A stretch of DNA of 30,545 nt from positions 1 to 30,545 of the forward strand of contig SXIP01000291.1 in the NCBI GenBank assembly GCA_005772825.1. The letters are read 5' to 3'. Under the pieces are notes generated by a model that was given only the letters and a program-made list of their open reading frames with translations, ran no database searches and was not told the origin of the DNA. This DNA comes from Methylococcaceae bacterium. GTDB lineage: Bacteria; Pseudomonadota; Gammaproteobacteria; Methylococcales; Methylomonadaceae. Positions within the stretch are counted from its first letter, which is position 1, and the number at the start of each line of letters is the position of its first letter. Positions 1-25,070 of this stretch are shown here, piece by piece. The position numbers and the translations under genes were made by a program.

Positions 1-1277
1 GTGATTGATTGGCGTTGAGGTCACTAATCACCAGCAGATCAATACCGTTGTAATTGGCGTTAAAACTGATGTTACGGATTTGCGCGCCGGTTAAGGCATT
101 TTTAAGTTGTACCCTCAGTTGCGTAGCGTTTTGTTGCAATACCGCAAGGCCAGCTGTGCCTTTACCACTGATGTCTCGCACCACCCCCAGGTCCAGCGGT
201 TTGAAGGCAGGATCAAACGGCATCGCGCTGAGTTTGACGCCGCTCAGGCTGTCTCGCACTTCCACTTGTACCGCCTGATCACTGCTGCGCACACCCAGCA
301 CGGCGATTTCCGATGCGCCGTTGTTGTTGAGGTCAGGTAAGACATTTGCTTTATTGGGCACAAATTGGCCGTCGAATGGGATTCGCCTGACCAATGCGCC
401 GGTTTGGGCGTTTTTCACCGTGGCGGTGGATTTTTTGAGGGTGGGGTTATAAGTGACGACGGCGATTTCGGGGCTGTTGTCTTTGTTGATGTCACCGAGT
501 GAGATAATCGGGGTTGCGTTAACGATTCCGTTGTATAGTTGCTGGATTTCAGATTCAGAGAGAGCCCGGTTGTAGATACGAATATCATCAACAGACCCGG
601 CAAAATATTCACCCAAGAAGGACGCACTTCCAAAGAACAACTGTGTATTTTGCGAAACGATGTTCAGACTTGTATTTACGGATGCGTCCAATACCGCATT
701 AACATAGAAATTCCATGATTTGTTGTTTTTGACAATGACCACCTGATACCAAGTGTTCTGAGCAAAATCTGTTTTTGATCCCATAAGGTGGGCAGCTATA
801 TTCCAGCTATCCCCACCAGTATCCAACCAATAACTCAATCCGCCATCCCCACTGTGATTATAATTAATTGCAATCCCGTTATGCGGCTTGGTATTTAAAA
901 TTGCATTGAATTGTTTCGATAAATCATCGAGCTTGAACCATGCACTTATCGTGTAAGCAGTGCTGCCTATATCGAAAAAAGCAGTTTGGGTGTTGATATA
1001 ACTATCTACGCCATTAAATCTGTACGCACTGTTCAAATCTGTACGCACTGTTCGCATTCCCGAAGCGATCCGTCGTCAGTGTCGCCTCATGGATAGCACA
1101 GTTATTACCATTGCCACTCACATCGTTGGCGTTACCATTAAATGGGTAATAAGCAGCTAATCCATCATTTAGCTCGGCTGTTGCAAGTATTGGGAGGAGC
1201 AATGCTATCGCAAAAATTATTGTAACAATACTCTTTTCGTTAAATCCCTGTTTTCGGTGTTCCATGTTGTTATTCAT
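1..1277 (-). pseudogene. Paralog 1 of the secreted LamG + FG-GAP-like propeller family. It is cut by the window edge (its 3' end lies off-window) and frameshifted by a 19-bp tandem duplication.
   Basis: N-terminal ORF 1014..1277 encodes a signal peptide and the start of a LamG_3 domain (LAAYYPFNGNANDVSGNGNN...SAYRF). It then hits a stop that a perfect 19-bp tandem duplication at 1016..1053 creates. Manual translation after removing one copy continues in frame through a full LamG domain (…VDDIRIYNRALSESEIQQLY…). It then runs into the conserved repeats (SLGDINKDNSPEIAV…MPFDPAFKPLDLGV…) and on to position 1. DNA at 1-520 is near-identical to 2262-2780. Confidence 0.7.
1016..1053. repeat. Perfect 19-bp tandem duplication (aaatctgtacgcactgttc, two copies) that disrupts paralog 1
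   Basis: Read directly: positions 1016-1034 equal 1035-1053. 19 is not a multiple of 3, so the frame shifts and a TAA stop falls at 1014-1016 on the gene strand. Confidence 0.9.
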
Positions 1278-1395
1278 GTTAAATTTCCTCTAAATTAAAG
1301 GCTCGCTGAAAAATGTCATCATTGTTTATGTCTACGCGGGAAGGGCAACATGCACCGTCCGGCTGAAAAAAGATGTTGCTCGATCTCAGATGCAA
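1278..1395 (-). promoter_or_regulatory. Conserved upstream/5' region of paralog 1, homologous to 3562..3679 upstream of paralog 2
   Basis: aaaggctcgctgaaaaatgtcatcattgtttatgtctacgcgggaagggcaacatgcaccgtccggctgaaaaaagatgttgc aligns with aaaggcttgctaaaaaatgtcatcattgtttatgcctacgcgggaagggcaacatacaccgtccggctgagaaaatatgttgc. Both end in a GGGGA-type Shine-Dalgarno 6-7 nt before the ATG. Confidence 0.5.
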
Positions 1396-1454
1396 CTTAA
1401 AAATACATCGCCTAAATCAACACCCCTGGAAGCTAGAGCTTCCCAGCCCGCATT

Positions 1455-1663
1455 CCCAAGCCAGAGCTCTCGTCGTTATACACAAGTCTGTTCAAGACTT
1501 GACTGTAGGCCGGAATAAGCATGCCCGGCGGTAGCAAGGGCGTGTGTTTCCGGCATCACGTAGCTTCGAAGTGCCGGAAACGCCTGTCCTGCGCTCATGC
1601 GCGGACAGCCTTATTCCGGCCTACCTCGATTTGTGTATAACGATGAGAGCCAGAGCTTGGGAA
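1455..1663. mobile_element. MITE-like nested palindromic repeat, copy A. Outer inverted repeats are cgttatacacaa / ttgtgtataacgatgag. The inner 119-bp core at 1506..1624 has perfect 15-bp terminal inverted repeats GTAGGCCGGAATAAG and a central hairpin gtttccggca…tgccggaaac.
   Basis: Inverted repeats read directly. The inner core is the reverse complement of the core at 7862..7981, with about 90% identity and matching asymmetric internal positions. There is no ORF. Confidence 0.75.
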
Positions 1664-1698
1664 CGAGCTGAGTAGTCACAAAAGCTCTACCTGCGCGC

Positions 1699-3561
1699 TT
1701 AAAAATACATCCCCTGAATCAACACCCCTGTCTTTCCATCACGCACTTCGGCAAACAGCTTTTGCGGACCGGGTTGTTCCCTAAGGCGCACCAATTCAGC
1801 GACGCCGTTGCCGTTGAGGTCGGGGATGGAGATGAAGCCGACCGTGGTGCCATAGTTGTCGAAGACGACTTTATTGATGAAGGTATCGGTTAGGGTGTCA
1901 TGGACTTCGGCGCGAATTTGTCCATCTGAGGCGCGCAGGCCCAGCATTGCTAGGTGGGTTTGACTGTTGCTGTCGGCGACACTCGCCAATTTGAACGGTT
2001 GTGACAAGGCATAGTCCAGCGTATTCACCGGTAAACCGCTTAAGGTGTCTTTTAATGACACCCGTGCGGTATTGGTCCGCAAAACCCCTAACTCGGGGCC
2101 GCCTTTGTTATTCAGGTCAGGTAGATTAATCAGTTGCTTTAGTTCTTGGCCGCTGCCGTAGCTGATGGTGCGTATTAATGCGCCGGTCTTGCTGTCATGT
2201 ATTTCTACGATGTCAGCCGCACTGGTGGTTTTGTTATCGGCCAGCACAGCGATTTCCCGTGATTGATTGGCGTTGAGGTCGCTAATCACCAGCAGATCAA
2301 TACCGTTGTAATTGGCGTTAAAACTGATGTTACGGATTTGCGCGCCGGTTAAGGCGTTTTTAAGTTGTACCCGCAGTTGCGTAGCGTTTTGTTGCAATAC
2401 CGCAAGGCCGGCGGTGCCTTTACCACTGATGTCTCGCACCACTCCCAGGTCCAGCGGTTTGAAGGCAGGATCAAACGGCATCGCACTGAGTTTGACGCCG
2501 CTCAAGCTGTCTCGCACTTCCACTTGTACCGCCTGATCACTGCTGCGCACACCCAGCACGGCGATTTCAGAAGCACCATTGCCGTTCAGGTCAGGCAGGA
2601 CATTGGCTTTAGTCGGCACAAATTGGCCGTTGAAGGTGATTTGCTTGACCAGGCCGCCGGTTCTGGCGTTTTTGACGGTGGCGGTGGATTTTTTGAGGGT
2701 GGGGTTATAGGTGATGACGGCGATTTCGGGGCTGTTGTCTTTGTTGATGTCGCCGAGTGAGAGAAGCGGGGTGGCATTGATGGTAAATTGATCCTTTGCC
2801 TTATACATTTCCATTACCTCCGTATCTGAAAGAGTTCTATTATAAATACGAACACTGTCTATGAGACCAGCATAGAATCTAGCATCTCTATTTAGAAGAA
2901 ATGCACCTATATTTAGATCGCTAAAATCTACTGCTGTATTATTCACTACTGAAAAAGTAGTGTTCGTATCTAAAATACCATTTACATAAAGATATGATGT
3001 TCCAGTATCGCCGTTCATAACCCATACAACATGCTGCAATTGGTTCAGTTGAATTGCTGTATTTCCATAGAATTCACTTCCGACCGGACCTGTACTTTGA
3101 GAAGGCTGGATTCCGTATTCAGCAGAATGAATTCTGCATTCACCAGACACCGTTCTTAGAGAAAATACAACTTTCCCCCAAGTCCATCTCGTTGACCCAA
3201 TAATTGAACCATCGGTATTAATCTCACATGATGAAGGTTTTATCCATGCGCTGAAAGTAAATGTATTATTTACAGGCGACGGAAAATAATTCAGAAGGCC
3301 GATATAATCACCAGTTCCGTTGAAATTATATGCGCTATTAGGCTTCCCGTTTCCATCGGTAGTCAATGTAGCTCCATTTACTGTCCCGTAATTTCCATTC
3401 CCACTTTCATCATTAGCATTTCCATTGAAAGGGTAATAAGCAACCAATCCGTTATTTAGGTCCGCTTTTGCAAGTATAGGCAAGAGTAAGGCCATCGAAA
3501 AAAGTATCGCAATACTCTTTTCGTTGAATCCATGTTTTTGGTGTTTCATGTTGTTATTCAT
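1699..3561 (-). CDS. Secreted LamG (ConA-like lectin/glucanase) domain + seven-repeat FG-GAP/beta-propeller protein, paralog 2 (620 aa)
   Basis: Complete ORF with a GGGGA Shine-Dalgarno 6 nt upstream of the ATG. It has a K-rich N-terminus plus a hydrophobic signal peptide (SIAILFSMALLLPILAKA) and a LamG_3 signature (LVAYYPFNGNANDESGNGNYGTVNGATLTTD…VRIYNRTLSDTEVMEMY). Seven repeats of about 50 aa follow, each with a D-x-N-x-(D/N)-G loop (LGDINKDNSPEIAV, LPDLNGNGASEIAV, ISDLNANQSREIAV, IPDLNGNGVAELV …). Confidence 0.85.
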   Translation of the reverse strand: MNNNMKHQKHGFNEKSIAILFSMALLLPILAKADLNNGLVAYYPFNGNANDESGNGNYGTVNGATLTTDGNGKPNSAYNFNGTGDYIGLLNYFPSPVNNTFTFSAWIKPSSCEINTDGSIIGSTRWTWGKVVFSLRTVSGECRIHSAEYGIQPSQSTGPVGSEFYGNTAIQLNQLQHVVWVMNGDTGTSYLYVNGILDTNTTFSVVNNTAVDFSDLNIGAFLLNRDARFYAGLIDSVRIYNRTLSDTEVMEMYKAKDQFTINATPLLSLGDINKDNSPEIAVITYNPTLKKSTATVKNARTGGLVKQITFNGQFVPTKANVLPDLNGNGASEIAVLGVRSSDQAVQVEVRDSLSGVKLSAMPFDPAFKPLDLGVVRDISGKGTAGLAVLQQNATQLRVQLKNALTGAQIRNISFNANYNGIDLLVISDLNANQSREIAVLADNKTTSAADIVEIHDSKTGALIRTISYGSGQELKQLINLPDLNNKGGPELGVLRTNTARVSLKDTLSGLPVNTLDYALSQPFKLASVADSNSQTHLAMLGLRASDGQIRAEVHDTLTDTFINKVVFDNYGTTVGFISIPDLNGNGVAELVRLREQPGPQKLFAEVRDGKTGVLIQGMYF

Positions 3562-3679
3562 GTTAAATCCCCTCTAAATTAAAAGGCTTGCTAAAAAATG
3601 TCATCATTGTTTATGCCTACGCGGGAAGGGCAACATACACCGTCCGGCTGAGAAAATATGTTGCCCGACTCCAGGCAAC

Positions 3680-5506
3680 TTAAAAATACATCCCCTGAAT
3701 CAACACCCCTGTCCGACCATCACGCACTTCGGCAAACAGCTTTTGCGGGCCTGGTTGTTCTCTGAGACGCACCAGTTCGGCGACGCCGTTGCCGTTGATG
3801 TCGGGGATGGAGATAAAGCCGACGGTGGTGCCGTAGTTGTCGAAGACGACTTTATTGATCAAGGTATCGCTGAGGGCGTCATGGATTTCCGCGCGAATTT
3901 GTCCGTCGGAAGCGCGCAGGCCCAGCATGGCCAGGTGGATTTGACTGTTGCTGTCGGCGACACTTGCCAATTTGAACGGTTGCGACAGGGCATAGTCCAG
4001 CGTATTCACCGGTAAACCGCTTAAGGCGTCTTTTAATGACACCCTGGCCGTATTCGCCCGCAACACCGCTAACTCGACGCCGCCGTTGTTATTCAGGTCC
4101 GGTAGATTAATCAGTTGCTTTAGTTCTTGGCCGGTGCCGTAGCTGATGGTGCGGATTAATGCGCCGGTCTTGCTGTCGTGTATTTCCACGATGTCGGCAG
4201 CACTGGTGGTTTTATTATCGGCCAGTACGGCGATTTCCCGCGATTGATTGGCGTTGAGGTCGCTAATCACCAGCAGATCAATACCTTTGTAATTGGCGTT
4301 AAAACTGATGTTGCGGATTTGCGCGCCGGTTAAGGCATTTTTAAGTTGTACCCGCAGTTGCGTAGCGTTTTGTTGCAAGACGGCCAATCCCGCTGTGCCC
4401 TTGCCGTTTATGTCCCGCACCACGCCTAAGTCAAGGGGTTTGAAGGCAGGATCAAACGGCATCACACTGAGTTGGACGCCGCTGAGACTATCCCGGACTT
4501 CCACTTGTACCGCCTGATCACTGCTTCGCACACCAAGCACGGCGATTTCTGAAGCACCATTGCCGTTCAGGTCAGGTAAGACATTGGCTTTAGTCGGTAC
4601 AAATTGGCCATTGAAGGGGATTTGCTTGACCAATGCGCCGGTTTGGGCGTTTTTTACGGTGGCGGTGGATTTTTTGAGGGTGGGGTTATAGGTGATGACG
4701 GCGATTTCGGGACTGTTATCGTTGTTGATGTCGCCGAGGGAAACAAGCTGAGGTGTGTTCGGGATTTCCTGGTAGAGTTGCTGAATTTCTGAGGCCGATA
4801 AGGCACGGTTGTATATACGAACATTATCTAAACTGCCACGCATATAAAATTCAAAACCTGTATGAATACTTTTTCCAATAAAACCTTTTGACATGCCCGT
4901 ATTATGTGATTGAGGGAACAAATGTGTGCCTATATTTAAACCGTTCAGATAAATATTCAACCTACTGTTTTTATATACATATGTTGTCATGCTCCATTTA
5001 TTGGCTATTAAAGGCGTATTACTGATAAACCAATCTGCACCAGAGCCCGTATCAAATCCCATTAGCCCTAGCCACGGTGCCGCGTATCCACCCCATGATG
5101 ACGTACCGTAAAGAATTGCAAAAGTTTTCCATTCTTCAGGCATTCCATAAGAAATAATCGCCCCAATAGACGTTCCAGTATCGAGTTTTGCCCAAACAGA
5201 TATTGTTCTTTCATGACTTCCAGACGGTAATGTATTGAGGTTCAATTCGATAAAGCTAGCACCATCAAAATAATACGCGCTATTTTGATTACCGAATCGA
5301 TCCTCAACTAAACTTGCTCCGTATACCGTTCCATCATTCCCATTTAAACTTTCATCTTTTGCATTGCCATTGAACGGATAATAAGCGACTAATCCGTTAC
5401 TTAGATCGGCTATTGCAAGTGTTGGGAAGAGCAAGGCTATCGCAAAAAATATCGCAATTCTGCTTTTCTTAAATACCGGTTTTTGGTGTTTTATATTGTT
5501 ATTCAT
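3680..5506 (-). CDS. Secreted LamG + FG-GAP/beta-propeller protein, paralog 3 (608 aa), with a distinct LamG head
   Basis: Signal peptide RIAIFFAIALLFPTLAIA. LamG motif LVAYYPFNGNAKDESLNGNDGTVYGASLVEDRFGNQNSAYYFDG…VRIYNRALSASEIQQLY. The C-terminal 370 aa are about 95% identical to paralogs 2 and 4. Confidence 0.85.
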   Translation of the reverse strand: MNNNIKHQKPVFKKSRIAIFFAIALLFPTLAIADLSNGLVAYYPFNGNAKDESLNGNDGTVYGASLVEDRFGNQNSAYYFDGASFIELNLNTLPSGSHERTISVWAKLDTGTSIGAIISYGMPEEWKTFAILYGTSSWGGYAAPWLGLMGFDTGSGADWFISNTPLIANKWSMTTYVYKNSRLNIYLNGLNIGTHLFPQSHNTGMSKGFIGKSIHTGFEFYMRGSLDNVRIYNRALSASEIQQLYQEIPNTPQLVSLGDINNDNSPEIAVITYNPTLKKSTATVKNAQTGALVKQIPFNGQFVPTKANVLPDLNGNGASEIAVLGVRSSDQAVQVEVRDSLSGVQLSVMPFDPAFKPLDLGVVRDINGKGTAGLAVLQQNATQLRVQLKNALTGAQIRNISFNANYKGIDLLVISDLNANQSREIAVLADNKTTSAADIVEIHDSKTGALIRTISYGTGQELKQLINLPDLNNNGGVELAVLRANTARVSLKDALSGLPVNTLDYALSQPFKLASVADSNSQIHLAMLGLRASDGQIRAEIHDALSDTLINKVVFDNYGTTVGFISIPDINGNGVAELVRLREQPGPQKLFAEVRDGRTGVLIQGMYF

Positions 5507-5584
5507 GGTTAATAATTTCCCCTTTGTTAAAAAACGCTCTTAAATCCACCATCTTGTAAATTGGATAAAAACAGCTCTCCCTCA

Positions 5585-7543
5585 CTAAAAATACATCCCC
5601 TGAATCAACACCCCTGTCCGTCCATCACGCACTTCCGCAAACAGTTTTTGCGGGCCGGGTTGTTCTCTTAAGCGCACCAGTTCAGCTACGCCGTTGCCGT
5701 TGATGTCGGGGATGGAGATGAAGCCGACGGTGGTGCCGTAGTTGTCATAGACGACTTTATTAATCAAGGTATCGCTCAGGGCGTCATGGACTTCCGCGCG
5801 AATTTGTCCGTCGGAAGCGCGTACGCCCAGCATGGCCAGGTGGGTTTGACTGTTGCTGTCGGAGACACTCGCCAGTTTGAACGGTTGCGACAGGGCATAG
5901 TCCAGGGTATTCACCGGTAAACCGCTTAAGGCGTCTTTTAATGACACCCGCGCGGTATTCGCCCGCAACACCGCTAATTCGGCGCCGCCGTTTTTATTCA
6001 GGTCCGGTAGATTAATCAGTTGCTTTAGTTCTTGGCCGGTGCCGTAGCTGATGGTGCGTATTAATGCGCCGGTCTTGCTGTCGCGGATTTCCACGGTGTC
6101 GGCGGCGGTGACGGTTTTATTGTCGGCCAGCACGGCGAGTTCCCGCGATTGATTGGCGTTGAGGTCGCTAATCACCAGCAGGTCAATACCGTTGTAATTG
6201 GTGTTAAAACTGATGTTGCGGATTTGCGCGCCGCTCAAGGCATTTTTAAGTTGCACCCGCAGTTGCGTAGCGTTTTGTTGCAGGACTGCGAGGCCCGCTG
6301 TGCCCTTGCCGTTGATGTCCCGCACCACCCCCAGGTCCAGGGGTTTGAAGGCAGGATCAAACGGCACCGCGCTGAGTTTGACACCGCTCAGACTGTCACG
6401 CACTTCCACCTGTACCGCCTGATCACTGCTGCGCCCACCGAGCACGGCGATTTCGGACGCGCCGTTGCCGTTCAGGTCGGGCAGGACATTGGCTTTAGTC
6501 GGCACAAATTGGCCGTTGAAGGGGATTTGTTTGACCAAGGCGCCGGTTTGGGTGTTTTTTACGGTGGCGGTGGATTTTTTGAGGGTGGGGTTATAGGTGA
6601 CGACGGCGATTTCGAGGGCTCCGTCTTTGTTGATGTCACCAAGTGAGAGAAGTGAAGGAATGCTTAGTTGAATTACTGGATTTTCATTGAAACGATCAGA
6701 GAAATCAGTTTTGGCGAAATCGTAAAACACAATATTATCGAGAATCGCATCAGCGTGAATACCATCCCAATTGTGTCGCCCAAGGTAATTTAAGCGGGAA
6801 GGAGGAAGATCGTTTCTTACCGGGCAATTTGGATTTCCTACCAACGCAAGTGATCCGTCGAAATATAAACGAAATAGATCGGTTGTGTTACCGATTCCGT
6901 TATTATCCCAAACCATTGCCCAGTGGTGCCATTGCCCAGTCTCGAAATGAATTCCGTGGCTGCTGTAAGTGCCTGTCAAATTAATTTGCCATCCATCTAT
7001 ACAGCTTTCTATCGGAAAAAATCCAGCTACGATAGTACCAGCACCATCACCCCAGTAGCCAAGCACAAGTCGTTGAGAGCTTAGACCAAGGCTTGTATCA
7101 AATAAAATATGTGTACCCACTCCCGACGACGGCCAAGAGGTTTTGACCCATAACGCGATCGTACCGCGTGAATTCAATATGAGGCTGTTAATCAGCGATT
7201 CGTCTAACAAAAAATATCCAGGAAAAGAACTATCCATCCTGACACCGTTACCGAATCGCCCTGACTCATAATTGACATCACCTGTCTGCACTAAAGGCGG
7301 TCCGACTTCGCTGTTTGTTGCTTGTTTATTGTCTCCAAGCCTATTCCACAAAACAACATCATCTGCTTGCGCGAATTGCACAAACACATTGCTGAAACCA
7401 AAGAGCAAAAATGAGAACGATAAAATGCCATACATCAAAGCAGTATTAAATTTCTGTCCGCTCTTTATGTATATAACCATAATGAAGCTTTTCGAGGCAG
7501 ATAGGGTTTTGATACCGGATTTTACAAAATCAGGTGTGTTCAT
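5585..7543 (-). CDS. Secreted jelly-roll (LamG-like, divergent) + FG-GAP/beta-propeller protein, paralog 4 (652 aa from the 7543 start; alternative ATG starts at 7480 or 7435)
   Basis: The N-terminal 280 aa are unrelated in sequence to paralogs 1-3 but have a LamG-like character (ALWVKTSWPSS…WHHWAMVWDNNG…LFRLYFDGSL). A hydrophobic segment MYGILSFSFLLFGFSNVFVQFAQA is a likely signal peptide. The C-terminal propeller is conserved. A weak AGGAA Shine-Dalgarno lies 9 nt upstream of 7543. Confidence 0.8.
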   Translation of the reverse strand: MNTPDFVKSGIKTLSASKSFIMVIYIKSGQKFNTALMYGILSFSFLLFGFSNVFVQFAQADDVVLWNRLGDNKQATNSEVGPPLVQTGDVNYESGRFGNGVRMDSSFPGYFLLDESLINSLILNSRGTIALWVKTSWPSSGVGTHILFDTSLGLSSQRLVLGYWGDGAGTIVAGFFPIESCIDGWQINLTGTYSSHGIHFETGQWHHWAMVWDNNGIGNTTDLFRLYFDGSLALVGNPNCPVRNDLPPSRLNYLGRHNWDGIHADAILDNIVFYDFAKTDFSDRFNENPVIQLSIPSLLSLGDINKDGALEIAVVTYNPTLKKSTATVKNTQTGALVKQIPFNGQFVPTKANVLPDLNGNGASEIAVLGGRSSDQAVQVEVRDSLSGVKLSAVPFDPAFKPLDLGVVRDINGKGTAGLAVLQQNATQLRVQLKNALSGAQIRNISFNTNYNGIDLLVISDLNANQSRELAVLADNKTVTAADTVEIRDSKTGALIRTISYGTGQELKQLINLPDLNKNGGAELAVLRANTARVSLKDALSGLPVNTLDYALSQPFKLASVSDSNSQTHLAMLGVRASDGQIRAEVHDALSDTLINKVVYDNYGTTVGFISIPDINGNGVAELVRLREQPGPQKLFAEVRDGRTGVLIQGMYF

Positions 7544-7822
7544 AAAGGTTCTTTCCTGTGTTAAAGGTGCGAAGAAAGCAGACCGATACAGTTTCCCGCT
7601 TGATTAAGTTTGAGCAAAGCCAAGGACGACGATGCTAATAAGCGTCATTTGAGCAGAAAAACAAGAGAAAAAATATTCGTACAAATACTTACAGGGCAGG
7701 GGGCTATAAGGTTATCGATTGGATTTACGGTGTAGTAAATTTGTTACTACGCCGATATGAAATAGACGTTGAATGTAGTAGGTTTTAACGTGTCGAGTCT
7801 TGCAAACGGTTGATTTTCGCTG

Positions 7823-8154
7823 TTTCCCAAGTTCCGCTCTCATCGTTATACACAACTCGATGTAGGCCGGAATAAGTCTGTCCGCGCTTTAGCGCAGGAC
7901 AGGCGTTTCCGGCACTTCGAAGCCGTGTGATGCCGGAAACACACGCCCTTGCTGCCGCCGGGCGTGCTTATTCCGGCCTACTTTCAAGTCTGTGGGAGCA
8001 CGTCATTCCGGCATGGATTGCCGGAGCCGTTAGAACGCGTAAGCGAATCCAGGGCATAGGGATGTGTTCGAAGTTACCGTCCATGGCCTGGATACCCGCT
8101 TCCCGGCTGGTATGACGACACTTGATGTATAACAGTGAGAGCTAGAACGAGCTG
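7823..8154. mobile_element. MITE-like nested palindromic repeat, copy B, inverted relative to copy A. The inner core is 7862..7981 with the same 15-bp terminal inverted repeats. An extra palindrome-rich segment of about 124 bp lies at 7997..8120.
   Basis: The outer inverted repeats ctcatcgttatacacaa … ttgatgtataacagtgagagctagaacgagctg match copy A. The core equals the reverse complement of 1506..1624. Confidence 0.75.
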
Positions 8155-8157
8155 AAA

Positions 8158-9321
8158 TTAGATCTTTGTCCCTCTATCAGTCAAACGCACCATATCGTTC
8201 ATGACGCCGTCCAGCCCGCCATAGACGTTGAGCGTGTTGATACGGGCGGTGATCTTTTCCAGTATTTCCAGTTCTTTCAGGCGTAGCAAAACCGGGTTGC
8301 CTTCCATGACTTTGGCTGTGTTATGCAGCGAACGGGTCGCTTGGGTTTCTTCCTGGCGCTTGATCAGGTTGGCTTCCGCCAGCTTTTGCGCTTCGACAAC
8401 CTGGGTCAGAATGGCTTTCATTTCGCCGGGCAAGATGATGTCGCGCGCGCCCACGGCCTTGACCTCAATCCCGTAGCTCGCGGCTTTTTCCACAACGATG
8501 CCGAGAATTTGGCTGTTCAGCGAATTCTTGTCGGCCAGCAGTTCGTCGAGCGTTTGCGTGCTGACAATGGTGCGCAAGGCCAGTTGCAATTCCCGGTATA
8601 GGAAGTCTTTGGCATCGGCCAATTCCGCCTTGACCACTTCAGGTTGTTTTATCTGCCAGGTGGCCGACAGATTGATACGCAAACTGACCCGGTCTTTGGT
8701 CAGGATTTCCTGACCGTTCACTTCCATATTTTGTAAACGACCGTCATACAACGATACCGTAATAGTCCGGTTGAAACGCCACCAGACATGGGTGCCGGAG
8801 TTTAAAGTCGCCAGCGTCTCGCCATCCACGGACAGAAAACCGATATGATTTTCCGGGACCGTAGCGATGACGATAGAGGCTATGACTGCTTTTCGTAACA
8901 GGTCATCCTTGCTGTTGGTCAATAGCGCGGCCAGTTTTTTTGCTACGCTAAAGTTCTCGCTAATGTCTGTTTTTTCAACACGGATTTCCTGACCGGTTTT
9001 CCAGTAAGCGCCGCTTTGCGCAGGTGCTTTAATATCCTTCAGCCCGTTTTTCTGGTAAACCAGACCGACTTCCTGCTCGCCGGTTTCCCATAGCGTCAGG
9101 CTGTCGGCAAAAGCCGCCGGATGCAATTCGGCCAGATCCAACACATCCTTGCTTACGCCATTCTGTAAGGTATTGGTGATCGTAACAGTTTGAAGCTGAT
9201 ATTGATTGAAACAATCCCAAAACTTATGAACGCCCGGCTGCAATACCTTGATGAACTGTTGCTCTTTAAATAACAGGCCGCGCTGGGTTTCCGGGATAAT
9301 GATTTTTTTCGTTAACAGCAT
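8158..9321 (-). CDS. SPFH/band-7 (stomatin/prohibitin/HflC-like) domain protein, 388 aa from an internal ATG with a strong Shine-Dalgarno
   Basis: C-terminal RDIILPGEMKAILTQVVEAQKLAEANLIKRQEETQATRSL…NPVLLRLKELEILEKI is typical of SPFH. The ORF-track start at 9507 would run into the tRNA-like genes. The ATG at 9321 is preceded by taAGGAGagcatt, giving spacing 6. Confidence 0.8.
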   Translation of the reverse strand: MLLTKKIIIPETQRGLLFKEQQFIKVLQPGVHKFWDCFNQYQLQTVTITNTLQNGVSKDVLDLAELHPAAFADSLTLWETGEQEVGLVYQKNGLKDIKAPAQSGAYWKTGQEIRVEKTDISENFSVAKKLAALLTNSKDDLLRKAVIASIVIATVPENHIGFLSVDGETLATLNSGTHVWWRFNRTITVSLYDGRLQNMEVNGQEILTKDRVSLRINLSATWQIKQPEVVKAELADAKDFLYRELQLALRTIVSTQTLDELLADKNSLNSQILGIVVEKAASYGIEVKAVGARDIILPGEMKAILTQVVEAQKLAEANLIKRQEETQATRSLHNTAKVMEGNPVLLRLKELEILEKITARINTLNVYGGLDGVMNDMVRLTDRGTKI

Positions 9322-9570
9322 AATGCTCTCCTTAAAATAAAAGCGACAAAGCCTCCACACGTCGTCGGCTCCCGACTTTATGAGCTGCGGGCAAGCGGGC
9401 TTTACGGTTTGCGCACAGGTCAGACCCGGACGGAAGGCGGTGTCCGTGTTGACGTTGGGTATATGCAGATCGGGCTGGCTATCCATGCTTGTTCGATCTA
9501 CAGCCACCTTCCGTCGGGAGGTTTGTCTATGCCCTTGCGGGCTGGATTTTAAGCTACCGTTTCAGGGTAG

Positions 9571-9644
9571 GTTCACTAGCCGGGGTCGAACCGGCGACAG
9601 ACTGATGATGAGTCAGTTGCTCTACCATACTGAGCTATAGTGTA
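9571..9644 (-). tRNA. tRNA-like gene, 74 nt, anticodon CAT (Met/Ile2-like). It has an A2:A71 acceptor mismatch and C at position 37.
   Basis: Manual fold: acceptor TACACTA/TAGTGAA, D-arm GCTC-AGTATGGTA-GAGC, anticodon arm ACTGA-CTCATCA-TCAGT, variable loop CTGTC, T-arm GCCGG-TTCGACC-CCGGC. It was not checked with tRNAscan. Confidence 0.5.
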
Positions 9645-9646
9645 TG

Positions 9647-9717
9647 TGCCGCCAGTTGGGATCGAACCAACGACAGGCCCGAGGTCGGGCTGCTCTACCG
9701 GACTGAGCTATGGCGGC
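9647..9717 (-). ncRNA. tRNA-like RNA, 71 nt. It has canonical acceptor, D and T arms, but the anticodon arm collapses to a 5-bp stem with a 4-nt loop, so it has no usable anticodon.
   Basis: Manual fold: GCCGCCA-TA-GCTC-AGTCCGGTA-GAGC-A-GCCCG-ACCT-CGGGC-CTGTC-GTTGG-TTCGATC-CCAAC-TGGCGGC-A. No register gives a 7-nt loop. It lies 2 nt from the preceding tRNA-like gene, is on the same strand as rtcB, and starts 106 nt downstream of it. Confidence 0.45.
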
Positions 9718-9823: not shown

Positions 9824-11029
9824 TTAACCCTTGACGCAAAGTACCTGCTTCAAGGTATGGACAATTTCCACCAGGTCGGCCTGCGCGGCCATGACCTTGT
9901 CGATGGGTTTGTAGGCTGACGGGGTTTCGTCGATCACGCTCGCGTCTTTACGGCATTCCACGCCTGCGGTCGCTTCGATATGCTCGGCCAGCGACACGCG
10001 CTTTTTAGCTTCGGTGCGGGACATGATGCGACCGGCGCCGTGGCTACAGCTACAGAAACTCTCTTCGTTACCCAAACCCCGCACGATGAACGATTGCGCC
10101 CCCATGCTGCCGGGGATGATGCCCATTTCACCCAGTCGTGCGCTCACCGCGCCTTTACGGGTTACCCAGACGTTTTTATCGTAGTGATGTTCGCGGCTGA
10201 TGTAGTTATGGTGACAATTCACCGCTTCGGTATGCGCTTCGAACGGCACCGGCAATACTTCGCGAATCGCCTGCAAGGTGTTTGTCATCATCACTTCCCG
10301 GTTGACCTGGGCGAAGTCTTGCGCCCAGGCAACGGCTGCAATGTAATTTTGAAAATGCTCGCTGCCTTCCGGGATATAGGCTAAATCTTTATCGGGCAAA
10401 TGGATGAACCAACGCTCCATGTCTTTTTTCGCCTGTTCGATAAAATGCGTACCGATCCGGTTACCGACTCCGCGTGATCCGCTGTGCAACATCACCCATA
10501 CGGCATTGTTTTCATCCAGGCAAATCTCGATGAAGTGGTTGCCTGTTCCCAAGGTACCCAGGTGGTTCAGATTATTGGTATTCTTCAGGAACGGATGTTT
10601 TTCGCACAAGCGCTGGAAACCTTCATCCAGCGCCAGCCACGCCTGTGTTATCTCTTCCGGCGGTTTACCCCAGCTTCCGGTATCGCGTCCGCCGCGGAAA
10701 TTCACTGAACGGCCATGAGGAACGCGTTGTTCTATCGCATTGCGCATGGCCGATAAAGAATCCGGTAATTGCTCGGCGGCCAGGCTGGTTTTTACCGCCA
10801 TCATTCCGCAACCCAAATCCACACCGACAGCGGCGGGGATGATAGCGCCGATGGTCGCGCCTTTACCGACATGCACATCCGGCATTACGGCAATCCATTT
10901 GTGTATAAAAGGCATGCGCGCGATATTTTGCAATTGCTGTTTTGAGTTATCGTCAAAACTGACGCCGCGCGTCCAGGATTTGATAGGGTGTTTACCTGCT
11001 TCGGATATAACTTCATAGGCGGTGGTCAT
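9824..11029 (-). CDS. rtcB: RNA 3'-phosphate/2',3'-cyclic phosphate RNA ligase RtcB (401 aa)
   Basis: Full-length match to the RtcB family by recognition (…MPDVHVGKGATIGAIIP…GNHFIEICLDE…HSGSRGVGN…CSCSHGAGR…). Confidence 0.95.
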   Translation of the reverse strand: MTTAYEVISEAGKHPIKSWTRGVSFDDNSKQQLQNIARMPFIHKWIAVMPDVHVGKGATIGAIIPAAVGVDLGCGMMAVKTSLAAEQLPDSLSAMRNAIEQRVPHGRSVNFRGGRDTGSWGKPPEEITQAWLALDEGFQRLCEKHPFLKNTNNLNHLGTLGTGNHFIEICLDENNAVWVMLHSGSRGVGNRIGTHFIEQAKKDMERWFIHLPDKDLAYIPEGSEHFQNYIAAVAWAQDFAQVNREVMMTNTLQAIREVLPVPFEAHTEAVNCHHNYISREHHYDKNVWVTRKGAVSARLGEMGIIPGSMGAQSFIVRGLGNEESFCSCSHGAGRIMSRTEAKKRVSLAEHIEATAGVECRKDASVIDETPSAYKPIDKVMAAQADLVEIVHTLKQVLCVKG

Positions 11030-20491: not shown

Positions 20492-22147
20492 TTAGTGTGT
20501 CAACGGATGTGTCGTCAAACTGCCGCGTCCGTCTTCGGTGATTTCATCGTCGCTGATTTTGAAATTACCCAATTTCATAGTCAGGTAGCGGTCGAAATAA
20601 TCTTTCAGGCCTTTTTCTACGGAAGGGTCAAAATCGGGTTTGACAATGTGGGTGGTGCCCCATTTGGTGTGTACCACCTTGCCGTCAACCACGACCAGCT
20701 CGCCGTCTTTAAAGACATAATCCGGCTTTTCAAACATACGCTGGCGGTCGGCGTTGTCGGTGTAAACGGTAATATCCGCCCAGTTTCCGGCGCTTAAACC
20801 GCCACGATCTTTCAGTCCGATCAATTTGGCTGCGCCGGCGCGGGTCATGATGGCGATTTCCTGTAGCGTGTATTCGCGGGTTATCGATGCCAATGTGGTC
20901 ATTTTTTGTGCTTCGGGATGAATGGTCGATAACACGTCATTACGGAAACTTCTGTCCATCAACAAGCGTATCAAATGCGGATAGCTGGTGAAAGGGGCGC
21001 CGTTGGGATGATCGGTGGTCAGGAAAATCCGCCACGGGTCATTGACCAGCAGGAAAGTTTCCAGGCCGATTGCCCATTGCAATGCATTGACGAAATTTTG
21101 ATCTTTATATTTGAACGGCACCACACCGCAACCGGCGTCGCATTCAATATCCATTGTCACCCATTTGTTCGGGCTTGCGTGTTTATGGTTGGCGTGCTGG
21201 CGCATGTTGTCGCCCGATGCGGTGACGGTTTGCCCGAACAGGATTTGCCCGACATCGATAGTGATGTTTTTATTGTTGTTGACAGCTTCCGCTATTTGCG
21301 CCGCACCGGACGAGAATTTGAAATCGCCCTCGGTGCCGTAGCTGTGGAATTGGATATGGGTCAAGTGCATGGGCAAACCGCCGATACCCTGGATGGTGTC
21401 CAGTGTGGTTTGCACATTGCCGGGCACGCCCAGGTTACAGCCGTGTACATGCAGAGGATGCGCCACGCCGATTTCTTTAACGGCGGTTGCCAGCACTTGC
21501 AGAATCTCTCGCGGAGTTACGCCGTAATGGCTGTTTTGTTCGTCCAGATCGAGCTTGCGCTGGTTGAATTTGAACGCATTAATGCCGCCGGGATTGACGA
21601 CTTTAACGCCTATTGCTTTAGCGGCTTGCATGGTCCAGGCGACATAATCGTTAATGGCTTTCTGGTCTTTTTTAGCCGTCAGCATGCGCAGCAGATAATC
21701 ATCACTGCCGAGCATGACATAACCGCCTTTATCCAGGATCGGAATATCGCCCATTTCCATGTGCGCCTGGCGGGCGTTGATAGGCAATAGCGCGGGTTCA
21801 AAACCGGCGGTATAACCCATTTCTGCATAACGATAGCCGGTTACAAAGGTGCTCGGCATGGCATGACCGCAACCGGATCGACAGATATGGGTGCTGGCGA
21901 CCGGGTCTTGTCTATGGTCTTCCGGCAACAGGGTGCGGGCAATATTACCTTTGCCGCCGCCGATATGCGTGTGCATGTCGATAGCACCGGACATCACGAC
22001 TTTGCCTTTCAGGTCATATTCCTTATCGGGTTTGGCATCGGTGGGCGGGTTGATGATGCGTCCGTCCTGGATGTAAAGGTCTTGCTGAATGCCTGCAATG
22101 CCTGCGGCGGGGTCGTAGATAGTGCCGCCTGTGAGTTTGATTAACAT
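20492..22147 (-). CDS. fhcA: Formylmethanofuran dehydrogenase subunit A-like amidohydrolase (FhcA/FwdA family), 551 aa
   Basis: Size and motifs fit (MLIKLTGGTIYDP…GAIDMHTHIGGGKGN…, the metal-binding HxH of the amidohydrolase superfamily). Family call by recognition. Confidence 0.75.
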   Translation of the reverse strand: MLIKLTGGTIYDPAAGIAGIQQDLYIQDGRIINPPTDAKPDKEYDLKGKVVMSGAIDMHTHIGGGKGNIARTLLPEDHRQDPVASTHICRSGCGHAMPSTFVTGYRYAEMGYTAGFEPALLPINARQAHMEMGDIPILDKGGYVMLGSDDYLLRMLTAKKDQKAINDYVAWTMQAAKAIGVKVVNPGGINAFKFNQRKLDLDEQNSHYGVTPREILQVLATAVKEIGVAHPLHVHGCNLGVPGNVQTTLDTIQGIGGLPMHLTHIQFHSYGTEGDFKFSSGAAQIAEAVNNNKNITIDVGQILFGQTVTASGDNMRQHANHKHASPNKWVTMDIECDAGCGVVPFKYKDQNFVNALQWAIGLETFLLVNDPWRIFLTTDHPNGAPFTSYPHLIRLLMDRSFRNDVLSTIHPEAQKMTTLASITREYTLQEIAIMTRAGAAKLIGLKDRGGLSAGNWADITVYTDNADRQRMFEKPDYVFKDGELVVVDGKVVHTKWGTTHIVKPDFDPSVEKGLKDYFDRYLTMKLGNFKISDDEITEDGRGSLTTHPLTH

Positions 22148-22253: not shown

Positions 22254-23516
22254 TTACCTATTAAATTTTGATAAATATCTTGAAAAAACCCATCCTTGCT
22301 TGAATTCATTTGTATCAGAGTCTTGATATTCTATTAAACACCAACTTCTTTTTTTATCTATAACCTTAACTATTTTCCCAATATATAATTCATCAATGAT
22401 TTCTGCCTTAGTGCTTTCATAATTTCGCACAAATAAAATTTTTGTAGCAACAAAATGATGATCTAGTAAAAATTGAGAATTGTAATTTTCATTCGCCCTC
22501 GAAATAATTTCATTTTTTACTTCTCTTGTACTTAGGTTAGGAAATTGATTCCATTGCTCTTCCCAATATGAGGTGGTTACGTTTGCAAAAATTGCTATGA
22601 AGTAAGGGATAAATAAATAGATTAGTACAGCTTTTATAATTGGATTGCTTAAGTTTTTGAGTTGCTCTATAAAACCATTTATAGCATCAATATAAGATTC
22701 GCAATTAATAGAAAAATCATTGATGTATTCAATGATTTCTTCTTGGCTTACTGACTCATTGCCGACAGAAAAAGTACCATCCTCATTGATGTGAACATTA
22801 GCAACTAACTCTGTATGATTTTGAGCGAGACCCTGGAATTCAAGTGTGCTTTCGAATATTTTTCTTAGTCCCAACATATTATCTAAGGGATAAGCTTCAT
22901 AACTTTTCATTTGCTCTTGAAGTCGGGAAATTGGGCTAACTGGTTGGGACAACTCGTGTAGCTTCTTCGCTTGACCTAAAATGCCGCCCATAAAATTGGC
23001 TTCATAATTTTTCATTTGCTCTTGAAGTTGGGAAATTGGGCTAACTGGTTGGGACAACTCGTGTAGCTTCTTCGCTTGACCTAAGATGCCGCCCATAAAA
23101 TTGGCTTCATAACTTTTCATTTGCTCTTGAAGTCGGGAAATTGGGCTAACTGGTTGGGACAACTCGTGTAGCTTCTTCGCTTGACCTAAAATGCCGCCCA
23201 TAAAATTGGCTTCATAATTTTTCATTTGATCTTGAAGTCGGGAAATCGAGCTAACTGGTTGGGTTATCTCGCATAGCTTTTTCAATTGCTCTTGGGTCTT
23301 TAGCAATGGATTTGTATCAAAAAGATTCTTAATTTGCCCTTGCGATTTCATAATTTCAAGCATTTGGTCAAAAGAATCCCTTTTGTCTTTCTGCAATAAC
23401 TCTATTTCTAATTGAGTCAGCATCCTTTTTTGAATTGATGATATAGCGAGCTTCTGACTCGGTAAGGCTGTCGAATCCGTAGCCAAAGAAGTCAATCCAC
23501 CAAGGTTCGAGTTCAT
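22254..23516 (-). CDS. Hypothetical membrane protein with four 35-aa tandem repeats and a C-terminal SH3-like domain. The real start is probably the internal ATG at about 23363, since the track start overlaps the upstream gene by 149 nt.
   Basis: The repeat LHELSQPVSPISRLQEQMKSYEANFMGGILGQAKK occurs three times, plus one degenerate copy. A TM helix IIKAVLIYLFIPYFIAIF follows. The tail is GKIVKVIDKKRSWCLIEYQDSDTNEFKQGWVFSRYL. The DNA is AT-rich. Confidence 0.6.
   Translation of the reverse strand: MNSNLGGLTSLATDSTALPSQKLAISSIQKRMLTQLEIELLQKDKRDSFDQMLEIMKSQGQIKNLFDTNPLLKTQEQLKKLCEITQPVSSISRLQDQMKNYEANFMGGILGQAKKLHELSQPVSPISRLQEQMKSYEANFMGGILGQAKKLHELSQPVSPISQLQEQMKNYEANFMGGILGQAKKLHELSQPVSPISRLQEQMKSYEAYPLDNMLGLRKIFESTLEFQGLAQNHTELVANVHINEDGTFSVGNESVSQEEIIEYINDFSINCESYIDAINGFIEQLKNLSNPIIKAVLIYLFIPYFIAIFANVTTSYWEEQWNQFPNLSTREVKNEIISRANENYNSQFLLDHHFVATKILFVRNYESTKAEIIDELYIGKIVKVIDKKRSWCLIEYQDSDTNEFKQGWVFSRYLSKFNR
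22893..23312. repeat. Four tandem copies of a 105-bp repeat. The first three are near-identical.
   Basis: Period 105 measured from the ggcttcat anchors at 22894, 22999, 23104 and 23209. The repeat is coding, so it is not CRISPR. Confidence 0.85.
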
Positions 23517-24108
23517 TATAGTTGCCTCTTAAGTTCGTTAGCGCATCTGTTGAAATAGCCAAAACAGATGAATAATTTTTGCCTGTTAAGGTAGTTGCCA
23601 ATAGAGTGTTTATACCAAATTGCCCGATATAACCTTTCAAATTAGCTAAGGTCCCACCTTGCGTTAAAGTGTCATCAAGAATGATGGCATCATCTGCTTT
23701 GCTACTCGGTATTCCAGCAAAGGGTGGCGGAAACGCTAATCTGGAAAATCCGTCTGTCCCCGTTCGGCTCACTTTAGCCGCTTGTACAATATTTAATTCA
23801 ATGGTCAAATTAAGTTTAGCGGCAATCACCAGCGCATAAGCTAACGGAATTCGGTTAATGCTAATGGCTTCTTCTGCATGAACAGGAATAAGTAACGGTT
23901 TTTTATCGCCTATCAAGTCTGCAATTTTTTGAATGGCAGCATCATTCACTAAATCACTGGCAAGTGTTAATGCTGCTTCAATTCCACCTGCTTTTGCTGC
24001 TTCATAACTAGGATGGTTTTTAGCAGAACCCATTGCAGCCTGTAATATAACGGATGGAAAATTCTTTTCCCATACTTGGCGATACGGTGCAATGGGTTTA
24101 TTAGGCAT
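23368..24108 (-). CDS. Phosphoribosyltransferase (PRTase type I)-like domain protein (247 aa from the ATG at 24108; the track start at 24150 is TTG)
   Basis: PRPP-binding-like motif DDAIILDDTLTQGGTL. AT-rich. Confidence 0.5.
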   Translation of the reverse strand: MPNKPIAPYRQVWEKNFPSVILQAAMGSAKNHPSYEAAKAGGIEAALTLASDLVNDAAIQKIADLIGDKKPLLIPVHAEEAISINRIPLAYALVIAAKLNLTIELNIVQAAKVSRTGTDGFSRLAFPPPFAGIPSSKADDAIILDDTLTQGGTLANLKGYIGQFGINTLLATTLTGKNYSSVLAISTDALTNLRGNYNELEPWWIDFFGYGFDSLTESEARYIINSKKDADSIRNRVIAERQKGFF

Positions 24109-24209
24109 TTTGGATTTTTGTTTAAATTTAATATTCTGCCTAACTATCAAAAGCTAATCCGAATTACCTAACCTAATTCCATCACTAAGCATATCCCAGG
24201 ATGGGGGTA

Positions 24210-24395
24210 TCAAGTCTTATAATGGTTCAATAAAGTTGCAGGATCAAAATTGGCCGGCACAGCGGGCCGGGTGCTTTTTAACTGACCAAACCCCATTGGG
24301 ATTTGCATCTTACAGTCTGCGTGGATGCCTAGCTGCTTACCGATGGTTTGGGGTGGGCTGGCTTGAGTTTTGCCGCTGACAGATTTATTTTGCAT
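24210..24395 (-). CDS. Small hypothetical protein (61 aa)
   Basis: Good AGGAAA Shine-Dalgarno 4 nt upstream of the ATG. No homology is recognisable. Confidence 0.3.
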   Translation of the reverse strand: MQNKSVSGKTQASPPQTIGKQLGIHADCKMQIPMGFGQLKSTRPAVPANFDPATLLNHYKT

Positions 24396-24452
24396 GGACT
24401 TTCCTGTTTGGTAGCAAATTAGTTTTTCAAAAATTTTGTAGGCTTATCAAGC

Positions 24453-25070
24453 TCAATCCTCCGCCCAAGTATCAAAAATCTCATTCACGTTCATTTCCAA
24501 CTCCGGAAACAAATACGGCACTGCAATATCATCGTTGGTGTACATGTGTTTCAATTCATATTTTTGCTGAGCATTCAATATGAATTGGTGAATGGTTTGA
24601 TACGCTGGAAAAACCAGCCAATATTCCGTTACACCGCTTTCTTGATAGAGCTCGTATTTGATATGGACTTCCCGTTTGGAATTCCCTTTGGAGAGTATTT
24701 CAATAATCCAATCGGGTGCGCCGTTGCAGCCTTGTTTATCGAGCTTTTCTTCCGGCTGACAAATGACGCATAAATCCGGTTGTACGACAGTTTGTATTTC
24801 TTGACTTTTTAAAATGGATTTTTTACGGTCATATAGTCGGACATCAAAAGGCGCGGCATAAACGCGGCATTTTTTGTGTTTAAAAAAAACTGATAAATAG
24901 CCCATTAAATTAGTGGATATGTCTTGATGCCTGACGTTGGGCGCAGGCGACATAACCATGACCTTGCCCTTGATTAATTCCACGGCTTCTTTTATTTGCC
25001 ACGTCAAATAATCGGCATAACTGTAACTTTGATTTAAATCCAGTTGACTCAGATCAAGGATTTTGGGCAT
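24453..25070 (-). CDS. Uma2-family (DUF820) putative restriction-endonuclease-like protein, 205 aa
   Basis: Family-typical features: YSYADYLTW near the N-terminus, acidic catalytic core …PDLCVI…APDWIIEILS…, and C-terminal EYWLV. A GAGGA Shine-Dalgarno lies 5 nt upstream. The gene starts 35 nt after the fhcB-like stop. Confidence 0.7.
   Translation of the reverse strand: MPKILDLSQLDLNQSYSYADYLTWQIKEAVELIKGKVMVMSPAPNVRHQDISTNLMGYLSVFFKHKKCRVYAAPFDVRLYDRKKSILKSQEIQTVVQPDLCVICQPEEKLDKQGCNGAPDWIIEILSKGNSKREVHIKYELYQESGVTEYWLVFPAYQTIHQFILNAQQKYELKHMYTNDDIAVPYLFPELEMNVNEIFDTWAED

Follow-up and report, generated by a model that had tools for sequence, protein, structure and literature searches.

A tandem gene array in a Methylococcaceae bacterium combines a common C-terminal propeller with variable N-terminal heads

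Results

Four head-to-tail genes encode the same propeller behind different heads

The initial annotation of contig SXIP01000291.1 from a Methylococcaceae bacterium, a stretch of 30,545 nucleotides (nt) that we refer to as the window, described four head-to-tail paralogs in positions 1-7543, encoding secreted proteins with a constant C-terminal module and exchanged N-terminal heads. Open reading frame (ORF) calls bore out the four genes, here named D, C, B and A, all of which lie on the minus strand. The same build is found in 4/4 genes: a signal peptide, a LamG head and a C-terminal FG-GAP-like propeller. The shared module is thus as first described, except that it is 353 amino acids (aa) long, with seven blades, rather than about 370 aa. 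The genes and their parts are as follows.

5585-7543, minus strand: gene D, ORF of 652 aa; divergent LamG head at 6647-7543, propeller at 5588-6646 and stop codon at 5585-5587 (boundaries by tblastn)
3680-5506, minus strand: gene C, ORF of 608 aa; signal peptide and LamG head at 4742-5506, propeller at 3683-4741 (boundaries by tblastn)
1699-3561, minus strand: gene B, 620 aa; signal peptide and LamG head at 2761-3561, propeller at 1702-2760
1-1277, minus strand: gene A, frameshifted and truncated at the window edge; signal peptide and LamG head at 503-1277, propeller at 1-502 (its first 167 aa)
1015-1052, minus strand: 19-nt tandem duplication, AACAGTGCGTACAGATTTG twice, which frameshifts gene A (read from the sequence)

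The signal peptides of all four proteins are of the Sec type, for instance ..LLLPILAKA/DL in B (the slash marking the boundary); gene D begins with a long leader and a signal peptide (..FVQFAQA/DD). The gene D protein has the same head throughout as its relative P0009, with differences confined to the propeller. The intergenic spacers span 78-420 nt and contain no small ORFs.

Gene A had been counted among the four paralogs; as it stands, the 19-nt duplication leaves just an 87-aa ORF. Removal of the 19 nt restores an open frame of 419 aa up to the window edge. The assemblies compared here are all metagenome-derived and consist of contigs; among them, the independent European Nucleotide Archive (ENA) contig L001, which carries the window array, contains the duplication again and continues the gene A propeller to 316 aa. 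Gene A is a probable pseudogene or off state. The array in 1-7543 is a real, well-delimited feature, and its members belong to an uncharacterised modular family with a portable C-terminal propeller.

The propellers are conserved while the heads have diverged to saturation

Searches with Laminin_G_3 (PF13385) confirmed that the heads are LamG/ConA-like, with scores of 88.7 bits for A, 68.4 for B, 61.3 for C and 41.3 for D against a gathering threshold of 27.6 bits. Their description as completely different holds for D, a distant LamG domain that alone could not be aligned to the others, but not for heads A, B and C, which are homologous, with full-length alignments at 38-43% aa identity (E 1e-43 to 1e-55) and the greatest likeness in the first ~80 and last ~30 residues. 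Synonymous sites in the head cores are saturated (proportion of synonymous differences, pS, 0.73-0.84), and nonsynonymous divergence (dN) is 1.0-1.6. AlphaFold2 modelling of B gave predicted local distance difference test (pLDDT) values of 80-88 at the edges of its head and below 45 in the head core, residues 134-225.

A repeat finder returned copies of the constant module at 3-302, 2261-2560, 4242-4541 and 6147-6446 (90-97%) and at 1700-1999, 3681-3980 and 5586-5885 (90-93%). The propeller DNA had been called near-identical over more than 1 kb, which proved too strong: the paralogs are 89-92% identical over 1,059 nt, and 97-100% identity is confined to the A/B pair and to ~300 nt. By the Nei-Gojobori method, synonymous divergence (dS) between propellers is 0.24-0.50 and dN/dS is 0.07-0.14, ratios by which the module is judged to be under purifying selection. 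Given the saturated synonymous sites of the heads, a propeller dS of 0.24-0.50 places propeller identity far above the level that protein conservation alone would be expected to give.

The switch from head to propeller is as sharp as initially described. In pairwise alignments with a 60-nt sliding window, nucleotide identity is 0.2-0.5 in the head cores and jumps to ~0.9 past the junction, at about 500 in A, 2790 in B, 4760 in C and 6650 in D. Across 17 family members, likeness starts 9-12 nt ahead of the SLGDIN codons.

The AlphaFold2 model of B shows the propeller (residues 265-620; block-mean pLDDT 86-98, with the majority of blocks above 93) as seven four-stranded blades of ~50 aa each, and the module has the seven blades of an integrin alpha-like propeller. 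Profile scores for FG-GAP domains are near the cut-offs (C, 28.5 bits on FG-GAP_3, cut-off 26.9; D, 21.9 on the same model; B, 20.2 on FG-GAP, cut-off 22.1), and no single propeller repeat alone scored above the Pfam FG-GAP gathering threshold. Loops of the calcium-binding type Dx[DN]x[DN]GxxD/E occur in 5/7 blades (DINKDNSPE, DLNGNGASE, DLNANQSRE, DLNNKGGPE and DLNGNGVAE), and the loop residues D57, N59, N61 and E65 and their equivalents are invariant across family alignment A1; the propeller is probably Ca2+-binding. A search of the PDB with the propeller profile gave zero chains at E <= 1, and in an NCBIfam scan no family covered the propeller, the matches to TafC and PA5033 being weak and far under their cut-offs. 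We also considered the C-terminal phenylalanine as an outer-membrane-protein signal and ruled this out, the final F being the repeat-position aromatic of blade 7.

The propeller occurs behind heads of several folds in longer arrays

A database search with B returned the same propeller, at 77-93% aa identity, behind other heads in related contigs, namely C-type lectin, VCBS/FG-GAP propeller, PD40 propeller, Kelch propeller and DUF1080-like (a weak match) heads and unassigned domains. The constant scaffold with variable heads proposed in the initial annotation is therefore broader than first thought, since unrelated folds precede the same propeller. In the 22 closest full-length relatives aligned end to end by blastp, the module is exactly the C-terminal 353 aa. 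An exhaustive search recovered 1,059 cluster representatives at E <= 1e-3, of which 200 reached E <= 1e-30, though some database entries are short and may be truncated gene calls; among the matches listed from the 1,059, the module is mostly C-terminal, and what precedes it in the cluster representatives differs greatly in length and, in those examined, also in fold. A scan of species-representative genomes, a set without the window's own species, gave relatives at 26-35% identity only, in Chromatiaceae, Arenicellales, Methyloglobulus and Methylovulum. The literature that we searched on FG-GAP in methanotrophs, Crenothrix, sheath, lectin and concerted evolution does not describe the family.

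The array looks to extend past the window. On contig L029, which comes from the window's own sample, the order is: a propeller end, a C-type lectin-headed member (LecC, 520 aa), a VCBS-headed member (870 aa), a second LecC member (523 aa), iPGM and more flank. The C-type lectin head (PF00059) of the family member P0011 scored 53.1 bits against a cut-off of 22.6. The sugar-site motifs of the two L029 lectins are QPD..WND in LecC520 and EPN in LecC523, so that array neighbours differ. QPD is the classic Gal-type signature and EPN the classic Man-type signature of C-type lectins, a specificity rule reportedly set out by Drickamer in 1992. The ends of L001 and L029 do not overlap (86% over 140 nt), which implies one or more further members, or a gap, between them; if L029 and the window contig are two ends of one array, this array has at least eight members.

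The long-read contig L002 carries six or more consecutive units whose heads are LecC, LamG and PD40, and an IS3 insertion lies among them. The IS3-family transposase (HTH_Tnp_1 and rve) sits at L002 10667-11890 among split LamG/propeller fragments; we rejected it as a component of the system and regard it as an insertion. On the same contig, the LamG-headed P0003 (2356-4539) has an exact 124-aa tandem duplication across the head-propeller junction, of which P0006 is the duplication-free version. This duplication reflects either unequal recombination or an error of a long-read contig with ~2x coverage.

Mosaic propellers and strain comparisons point to recombination between repeats

Among 29 informative sites at which the four propellers split two by two, we counted 10 runs compared with 19.1 expected (p = 0.0003). 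Sites that group A with B and C with D form a tract at nt 254-527 of the propeller, and sites that group A with D and B with C form another at nt 822-899. The propeller clades are also discordant with head type, LamG and PD40 heads both being found on both clades.

Comparison of array contigs across strains and samples, which the initial annotation had proposed as a check, revealed syntenic loci that differ in heads or in copy number. Contig L028, from a second sample of the same study, matches the window from 17522 down to ~6750 with zero mismatches and a single 21-nt indel in rtcB, and its array has two members only. The first of these equals D up to nt ~550 of the propeller, save for a patch of 12 mismatches at nt 100-250, and from there on equals the propeller of P0012 from L029 with no mismatch, followed by LecC523 and the iPGM flank; the right flank of the L028 array is that of L029. 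The crossover falls within a 72-nt stretch common to the D and P0012 propellers, which is shorter than the assembly k of 141. Read from the contigs, this structure is the outcome expected of an unequal crossover that would have deleted the units in between.

Head replacement and loss of members appear in other strains. In L027, whose flanks are ~95% identical to those of the window, a Kelch head occupies the site of the LamG head of D, the replaced segment being bounded by window ~7641, inside a shared leader, and by 6648, at the junction; PD40- and LamG-headed members come next. Contigs L031 and L032, which represent two more distant genomes, have a common flank at 88% identity and differ in their heads: one carries PD40 and DUF1080-like members and the other a single LamG member together with a 213-nt propeller relic. 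This relic, at L032 9585-9797, is a propeller 3´ end with 85% identity to the L031 propellers and lies upstream of the sole family member, which suggests from its position that a neighbouring member was lost. Since heads of unrelated folds cannot derive from each other, recombination must have brought them together with the propeller.

A proposed hypervariable array evolving by homologous recombination

Together these observations lead us to propose that the window holds one end of a hypervariable array of Sec-exported two-domain proteins with a common anchor and variable heads, encoded by repeats that recombine with one another, and we assign this reading a probability of roughly 0.6. That the array has evolved by recombination between propeller repeats is largely shown; the function of the proteins, as common-anchor, variable-head lectins or adhesins, is inferred by analogy. 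In a tandem array each head is bracketed by two copies of ~1 kb of ~90% identical DNA, the propeller of the preceding gene and its own propeller, and leaders and spacers are common to subsets of members. Homologous recombination between these repeats would patch the propellers with conversion tracts and so keep them alike, unequal crossover would delete or duplicate whole units, and head cassettes would be replaced between strains; the same general homologous recombination could account for the relics of lost members. The junction would be sharp because homology, and the domain, begin there. As for the proteins, the constant propeller would dock every member onto one self structure, be it an exopolysaccharide, a sheath, a surface glycan or a partner protein, and the heads would bind differing external glycans or ligands, giving a lectin or adhesin repertoire that varies between strains.

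Several observations weigh against this proposal. The window paralogs (89-92% nt identity) are no closer to each other than to the propellers of the strain with ~95% identical flanks (91-93%); with homogenisation this weak, part of the pattern may reflect fairly recent duplication and head replacement instead of continuing conversion. The initial annotation had inferred ongoing gene conversion or recent duplication. Recombination stands, but with dS of ~0.3 and paralogs no closer than between-strain copies, "ongoing" was overstated and is better read as occasional conversion patches together with turnover of units. Furthermore, the short-read contigs break at a 141-nt exact repeat and the long-read contigs have ~2x coverage and frameshifts; because the assemblies are from metagenomes and contigs break in this way, individual mosaics and the two-gene version in L028 could be assembly products. 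On the protein side, the core of the B head is poorly modelled, no conserved partner or polysaccharide-synthesis genes were found beside the arrays, and by sequence the propeller could be related neither to Bap1 nor to any solved structure.

The pattern could alternatively have arisen by ordinary birth and death, in which a fairly recent tandem duplication (dS ~0.3) was followed by fast head divergence or one-off domain shuffling with no continuing recombination, so that propeller likeness would reflect age and purifying selection only. In keeping with this, propeller dS is not tiny and dN/dS is ~0.1, paralogs of the same genome show no greater likeness than copies taken from different genomes, and heads A, B and C are true paralogs with ~40% identity. 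However, the saturated synonymous sites of the heads lie beside propellers with dS of ~0.3, and head and propeller therefore cannot have one duplication date. The tracts of informative sites (p = 0.0003), the 12-mismatch patch and clean crossover in D between two samples that share ~11 kb of flank without mismatch save for the 21-nt indel, and the single junction common to heads of unrelated folds likewise speak against birth and death, which we regard as unlikely. An assembly artefact, with repeats producing chimeric or collapsed contigs whose gene order, mosaics and copy-number differences are not biological, is very unlikely. L001 does stop exactly at a 141-nt exact repeat between A and D, the MEGAHIT k-mer length, so that contig ends at the array locus are repeat-induced, and besides their low coverage and frameshifts the long-read contigs include the odd internal duplication in P0003. 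Yet arrays were recovered in independent assemblies (the NCBI contig, ENA MEGAHIT contigs of two samples, GCA_005804565.1 and the long-read contigs) and in 37-kb and 305-kb contigs of other projects, the ORFs are intact, and the paralogs differ at about every 10 nt with longest exact matches mostly below 75 nt, such that a k = 141 graph keeps them apart; the L028 crossover also falls within 72 nt of common sequence, less than k.

It is also conceivable, though somewhat less likely than birth and death, that the variation is programmed or selected, a population-level switching of a surface lectin or receptor for phage or predator evasion or for kin or partner recognition, in which swaps and on/off changes would come about by unequal crossover and by frameshifts that can revert, the 19-nt duplication in A being an example. 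The array structures that differ between two samples with flanks free of mismatches save the 21-nt indel would fit such a system, as would the frameshifting tandem duplication within A, the replacement of heads at syntenic sites and the relics of lost members. Against it, the window, in which Pfam scans took in most of the larger ORFs outside the array, contains no recombinase, invertase, reverse transcriptase or boundary repeat, and the only repeats found are the propeller, leader and spacer. The window members other than A are complete, with their own start codon and signal peptide, and a terminator-like hairpin follows C; apart from A, they are thus not silent cassettes that supply a single expression site. 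We find no support for a programmed switching of heads within a cell lineage.

Three further classes of system were ruled out. Integrons, shufflons and other site-specific cassettes do not fit, as no integrase or invertase domain was found in the scanned window ORFs and the boundaries lie inside coding sequence. For a diversity-generating retroelement, there is no reverse transcriptase in the larger window ORFs and no template-like head repeat, and what varies is an entire N-terminal domain that has diverged to saturation. Compared with polymorphic toxins (Rhs, CDI, MafB), the polarity is reversed and the 78-420-nt spacers carry no small ORFs.

The array combines features of several known systems

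The principles underlying the array, modular adhesins and recombination among repeated gene segments, are known, and their combination is undescribed in the literature searched. The closest working model is provided by Bap1 and RbmC of Vibrio cholerae, in which a shared propeller binds matrix polysaccharide and distinct domains face outward (PMC10102183). Those proteins are likewise secreted and modular, with a conserved beta-propeller of the Ca2+ type (FG-GAP/VCBS-like) that has a Velcro closure, and with differing lectin or adhesion domains. The likeness is one of analogy, not membership: the Bap1/RbmC propeller has eight blades, with a beta-prism lectin in or after the propeller, whereas the array proteins have seven blades and an N-terminal head, and a homologous eight-bladed propeller was not found in them. 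Bap1 and RbmC are two dispersed genes, in contrast to a tandem array of at least 4-8 members with at least six head types, and their anchor binds the matrix of the producer, a role that is putative for the propeller described here. Relative to the propellers of integrin alpha and FG-GAP proteins (PF01839, PF13517), PVL of Psathyrella and PLL of Photorhabdus, the Pfam scores of the module are at or below the gathering threshold. Its blades, compared with those of the integrin alpha/FG-GAP group, are regular 50-aa repeats with their own consensus and no curated model.

Families with a constant anchor include the pneumococcal choline-binding proteins, the Cwp/CWB2 proteins of C. difficile, type IX secretion system (T9SS) cargo with its C-terminal domain, and the autotransporters. 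These resemble the array in having many paralogs with a common C-terminal module and a differing N-terminal functional domain after the signal peptide. They differ in that the known anchors or secretion signals have other folds and the genes are mostly dispersed, while here the module is a whole propeller, the genes are in tandem and recombination takes place between the modules. In Myxococcus TraA, a variable lectin-like N-terminal domain follows the signal peptide, the C-terminal part is conserved, and strain variation sets specificity. The placement of a variable domain right after the signal peptide and ahead of a constant C-terminal part is shared with the array, but TraA is a single gene with allelic variation in one fold (PA14), with Cys-rich repeats and a sorting tag and no array.

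Cassette variation based on repeats is known from pilE/pilS and opa of Neisseria and from the MgPa repeats of Mycoplasma genitalium (PMC2169797). There, as proposed here, conserved repeats recombine homologously and move variable segments to give mosaic alleles. In those pathogens, which are under immune pressure, silent partial cassettes donate to one expression site, whereas the units in the window, A excepted, are complete and look expressible, the host is a free-living methanotroph, and the variable unit is a whole domain, often of another fold.

The authors of the Bap1/RbmC study asked whether the "double-sided tape" design reaches other biofilms (PMC10102183). If the function proposed above is correct, the array would be such a case outside Vibrio and a much more elaborate one, in which methane oxidisers of environmental importance combine one anchor with six or more kinds of head. 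It would also illustrate clearly how a conserved domain in tandem supplies a built-in means by which whole binding domains are exchanged, gained and lost, with no dedicated recombinase involved. A bolder extension, which we consider doubtful, is that propeller modules and leaders make up an integrase-free cassette system in which domains of unrelated fold are captured, exchanged, deleted or switched off at high frequency in populations. Were this so, a methanotroph population would carry rapidly reshuffled surface lectins on one anchor, which could drive strain-specific aggregation, partner choice or escape from phages and grazers. The 353-aa propeller, with no curated model and ~1,000 cluster representatives, offers a handle on secreted binding proteins in uncultured Gammaproteobacteria.

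Spacers, leaders and a palindromic element between array members

The DNA around the array genes contains further repeated features.

7558-7716, minus strand: conserved 5´ leader, upstream of and overlapping the D start, common to differently headed members
3562-3679, minus strand: C-to-B spacer, homologous to the spacer upstream of A
1453-1663, no strand assigned: palindromic element of ~210 nt resembling a miniature inverted-repeat transposable element (MITE), between B and the relic (self reverse-complement match)
1396-1428, minus strand: propeller 3´-end relic of 33 nt, coding for TGVLI*AMYF* (blastn)
1278-1395, minus strand: copy of the C-to-B spacer, lying upstream of gene A (89% over 152 nt including the relic)

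The upstream regions of A and B had been noted as conserved, and they are 89-90% identical over ~150 nt. This conserved DNA is the spacer that trails a propeller. The C-to-B copy contains a ribosome-binding site, a hairpin resembling a terminator (3660-3679) and a conserved core of 24 nt (CAGCCGGACGGTGCATGTTGCCC-like); the repeat family D6 aligns 3577-3668 with 1292-1383 at 90%, and the 24-nt core is also present upstream of P0012 and P0010. The relic at 1396-1428 matches the 3´ ends of all propellers at 90-94% (blastn) and was left behind by an array member that was lost or rearranged between B and A. Upstream of D, the leader is 87% identical to L027 11323-11489, which precedes a PD40-headed member.

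We searched the whole window against Rfam with the conserved spacer and leader in mind and recovered two tRNAs only; a sigma-70 promoter scan of 1-8200 gave fewer hits than shuffled sequence, and by eye the 24-nt core does not match sigma-54 spacing. The called ORFs of P0010 (L003 215-2233) and P0012 (L029 2148-4760) open with a lectin-type leader remnant (MSxTQFKNxLK) and then run through the conserved spacer core (QPDGACCPVRR...) ahead of the likely true start, an arrangement that, by its sequence, indicates leader shuffling and mis-called start sites.

The MITE-like element ends in terminal inverted repeats of roughly 30 nt, and its copy in the array has a duplicated propeller 3´ end at its flanks. 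A second copy, at 91%, is located at 7824-7991 between the Band_7 gene and D; others are found at L027 8582-8754 and L028 9553-9720, with a shorter match in L003 (~4367-4420).

Observations on the flanking region

At 9570-9717 on the minus strand, ~100 nt downstream of rtcB (RNA ligase) and beside rtcR, there is a back-to-back pair of tRNA genes (Arg-CCT and Met-CAT) that may belong to an RtcR-controlled unit. The window copy of rtcB (9824-11029) lacks, relative to L028, 21 nt (7 aa, SVIPTIG) at ~10846; the deletion is between short direct repeats in a conserved Gly-rich segment. The FhcA protein of the window falls in a 90%-identity cluster with Crenothrix, Methylobacter and Methylovulum proteins, which makes the source organism a methanotroph of the Methylococcales. 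Its gene, fhcA (20492-22147), is separated from fhcB (25106-26374) by the region 22254-25070, which has a GC content of 35-41% compared with ~50%. This region codes for an endonuclease of the Uma2 family, a protein whose tail is SH3_3 and one ORF without assignment, and has the appearance of an insertion within the formyltransferase/hydrolase cluster of genes.

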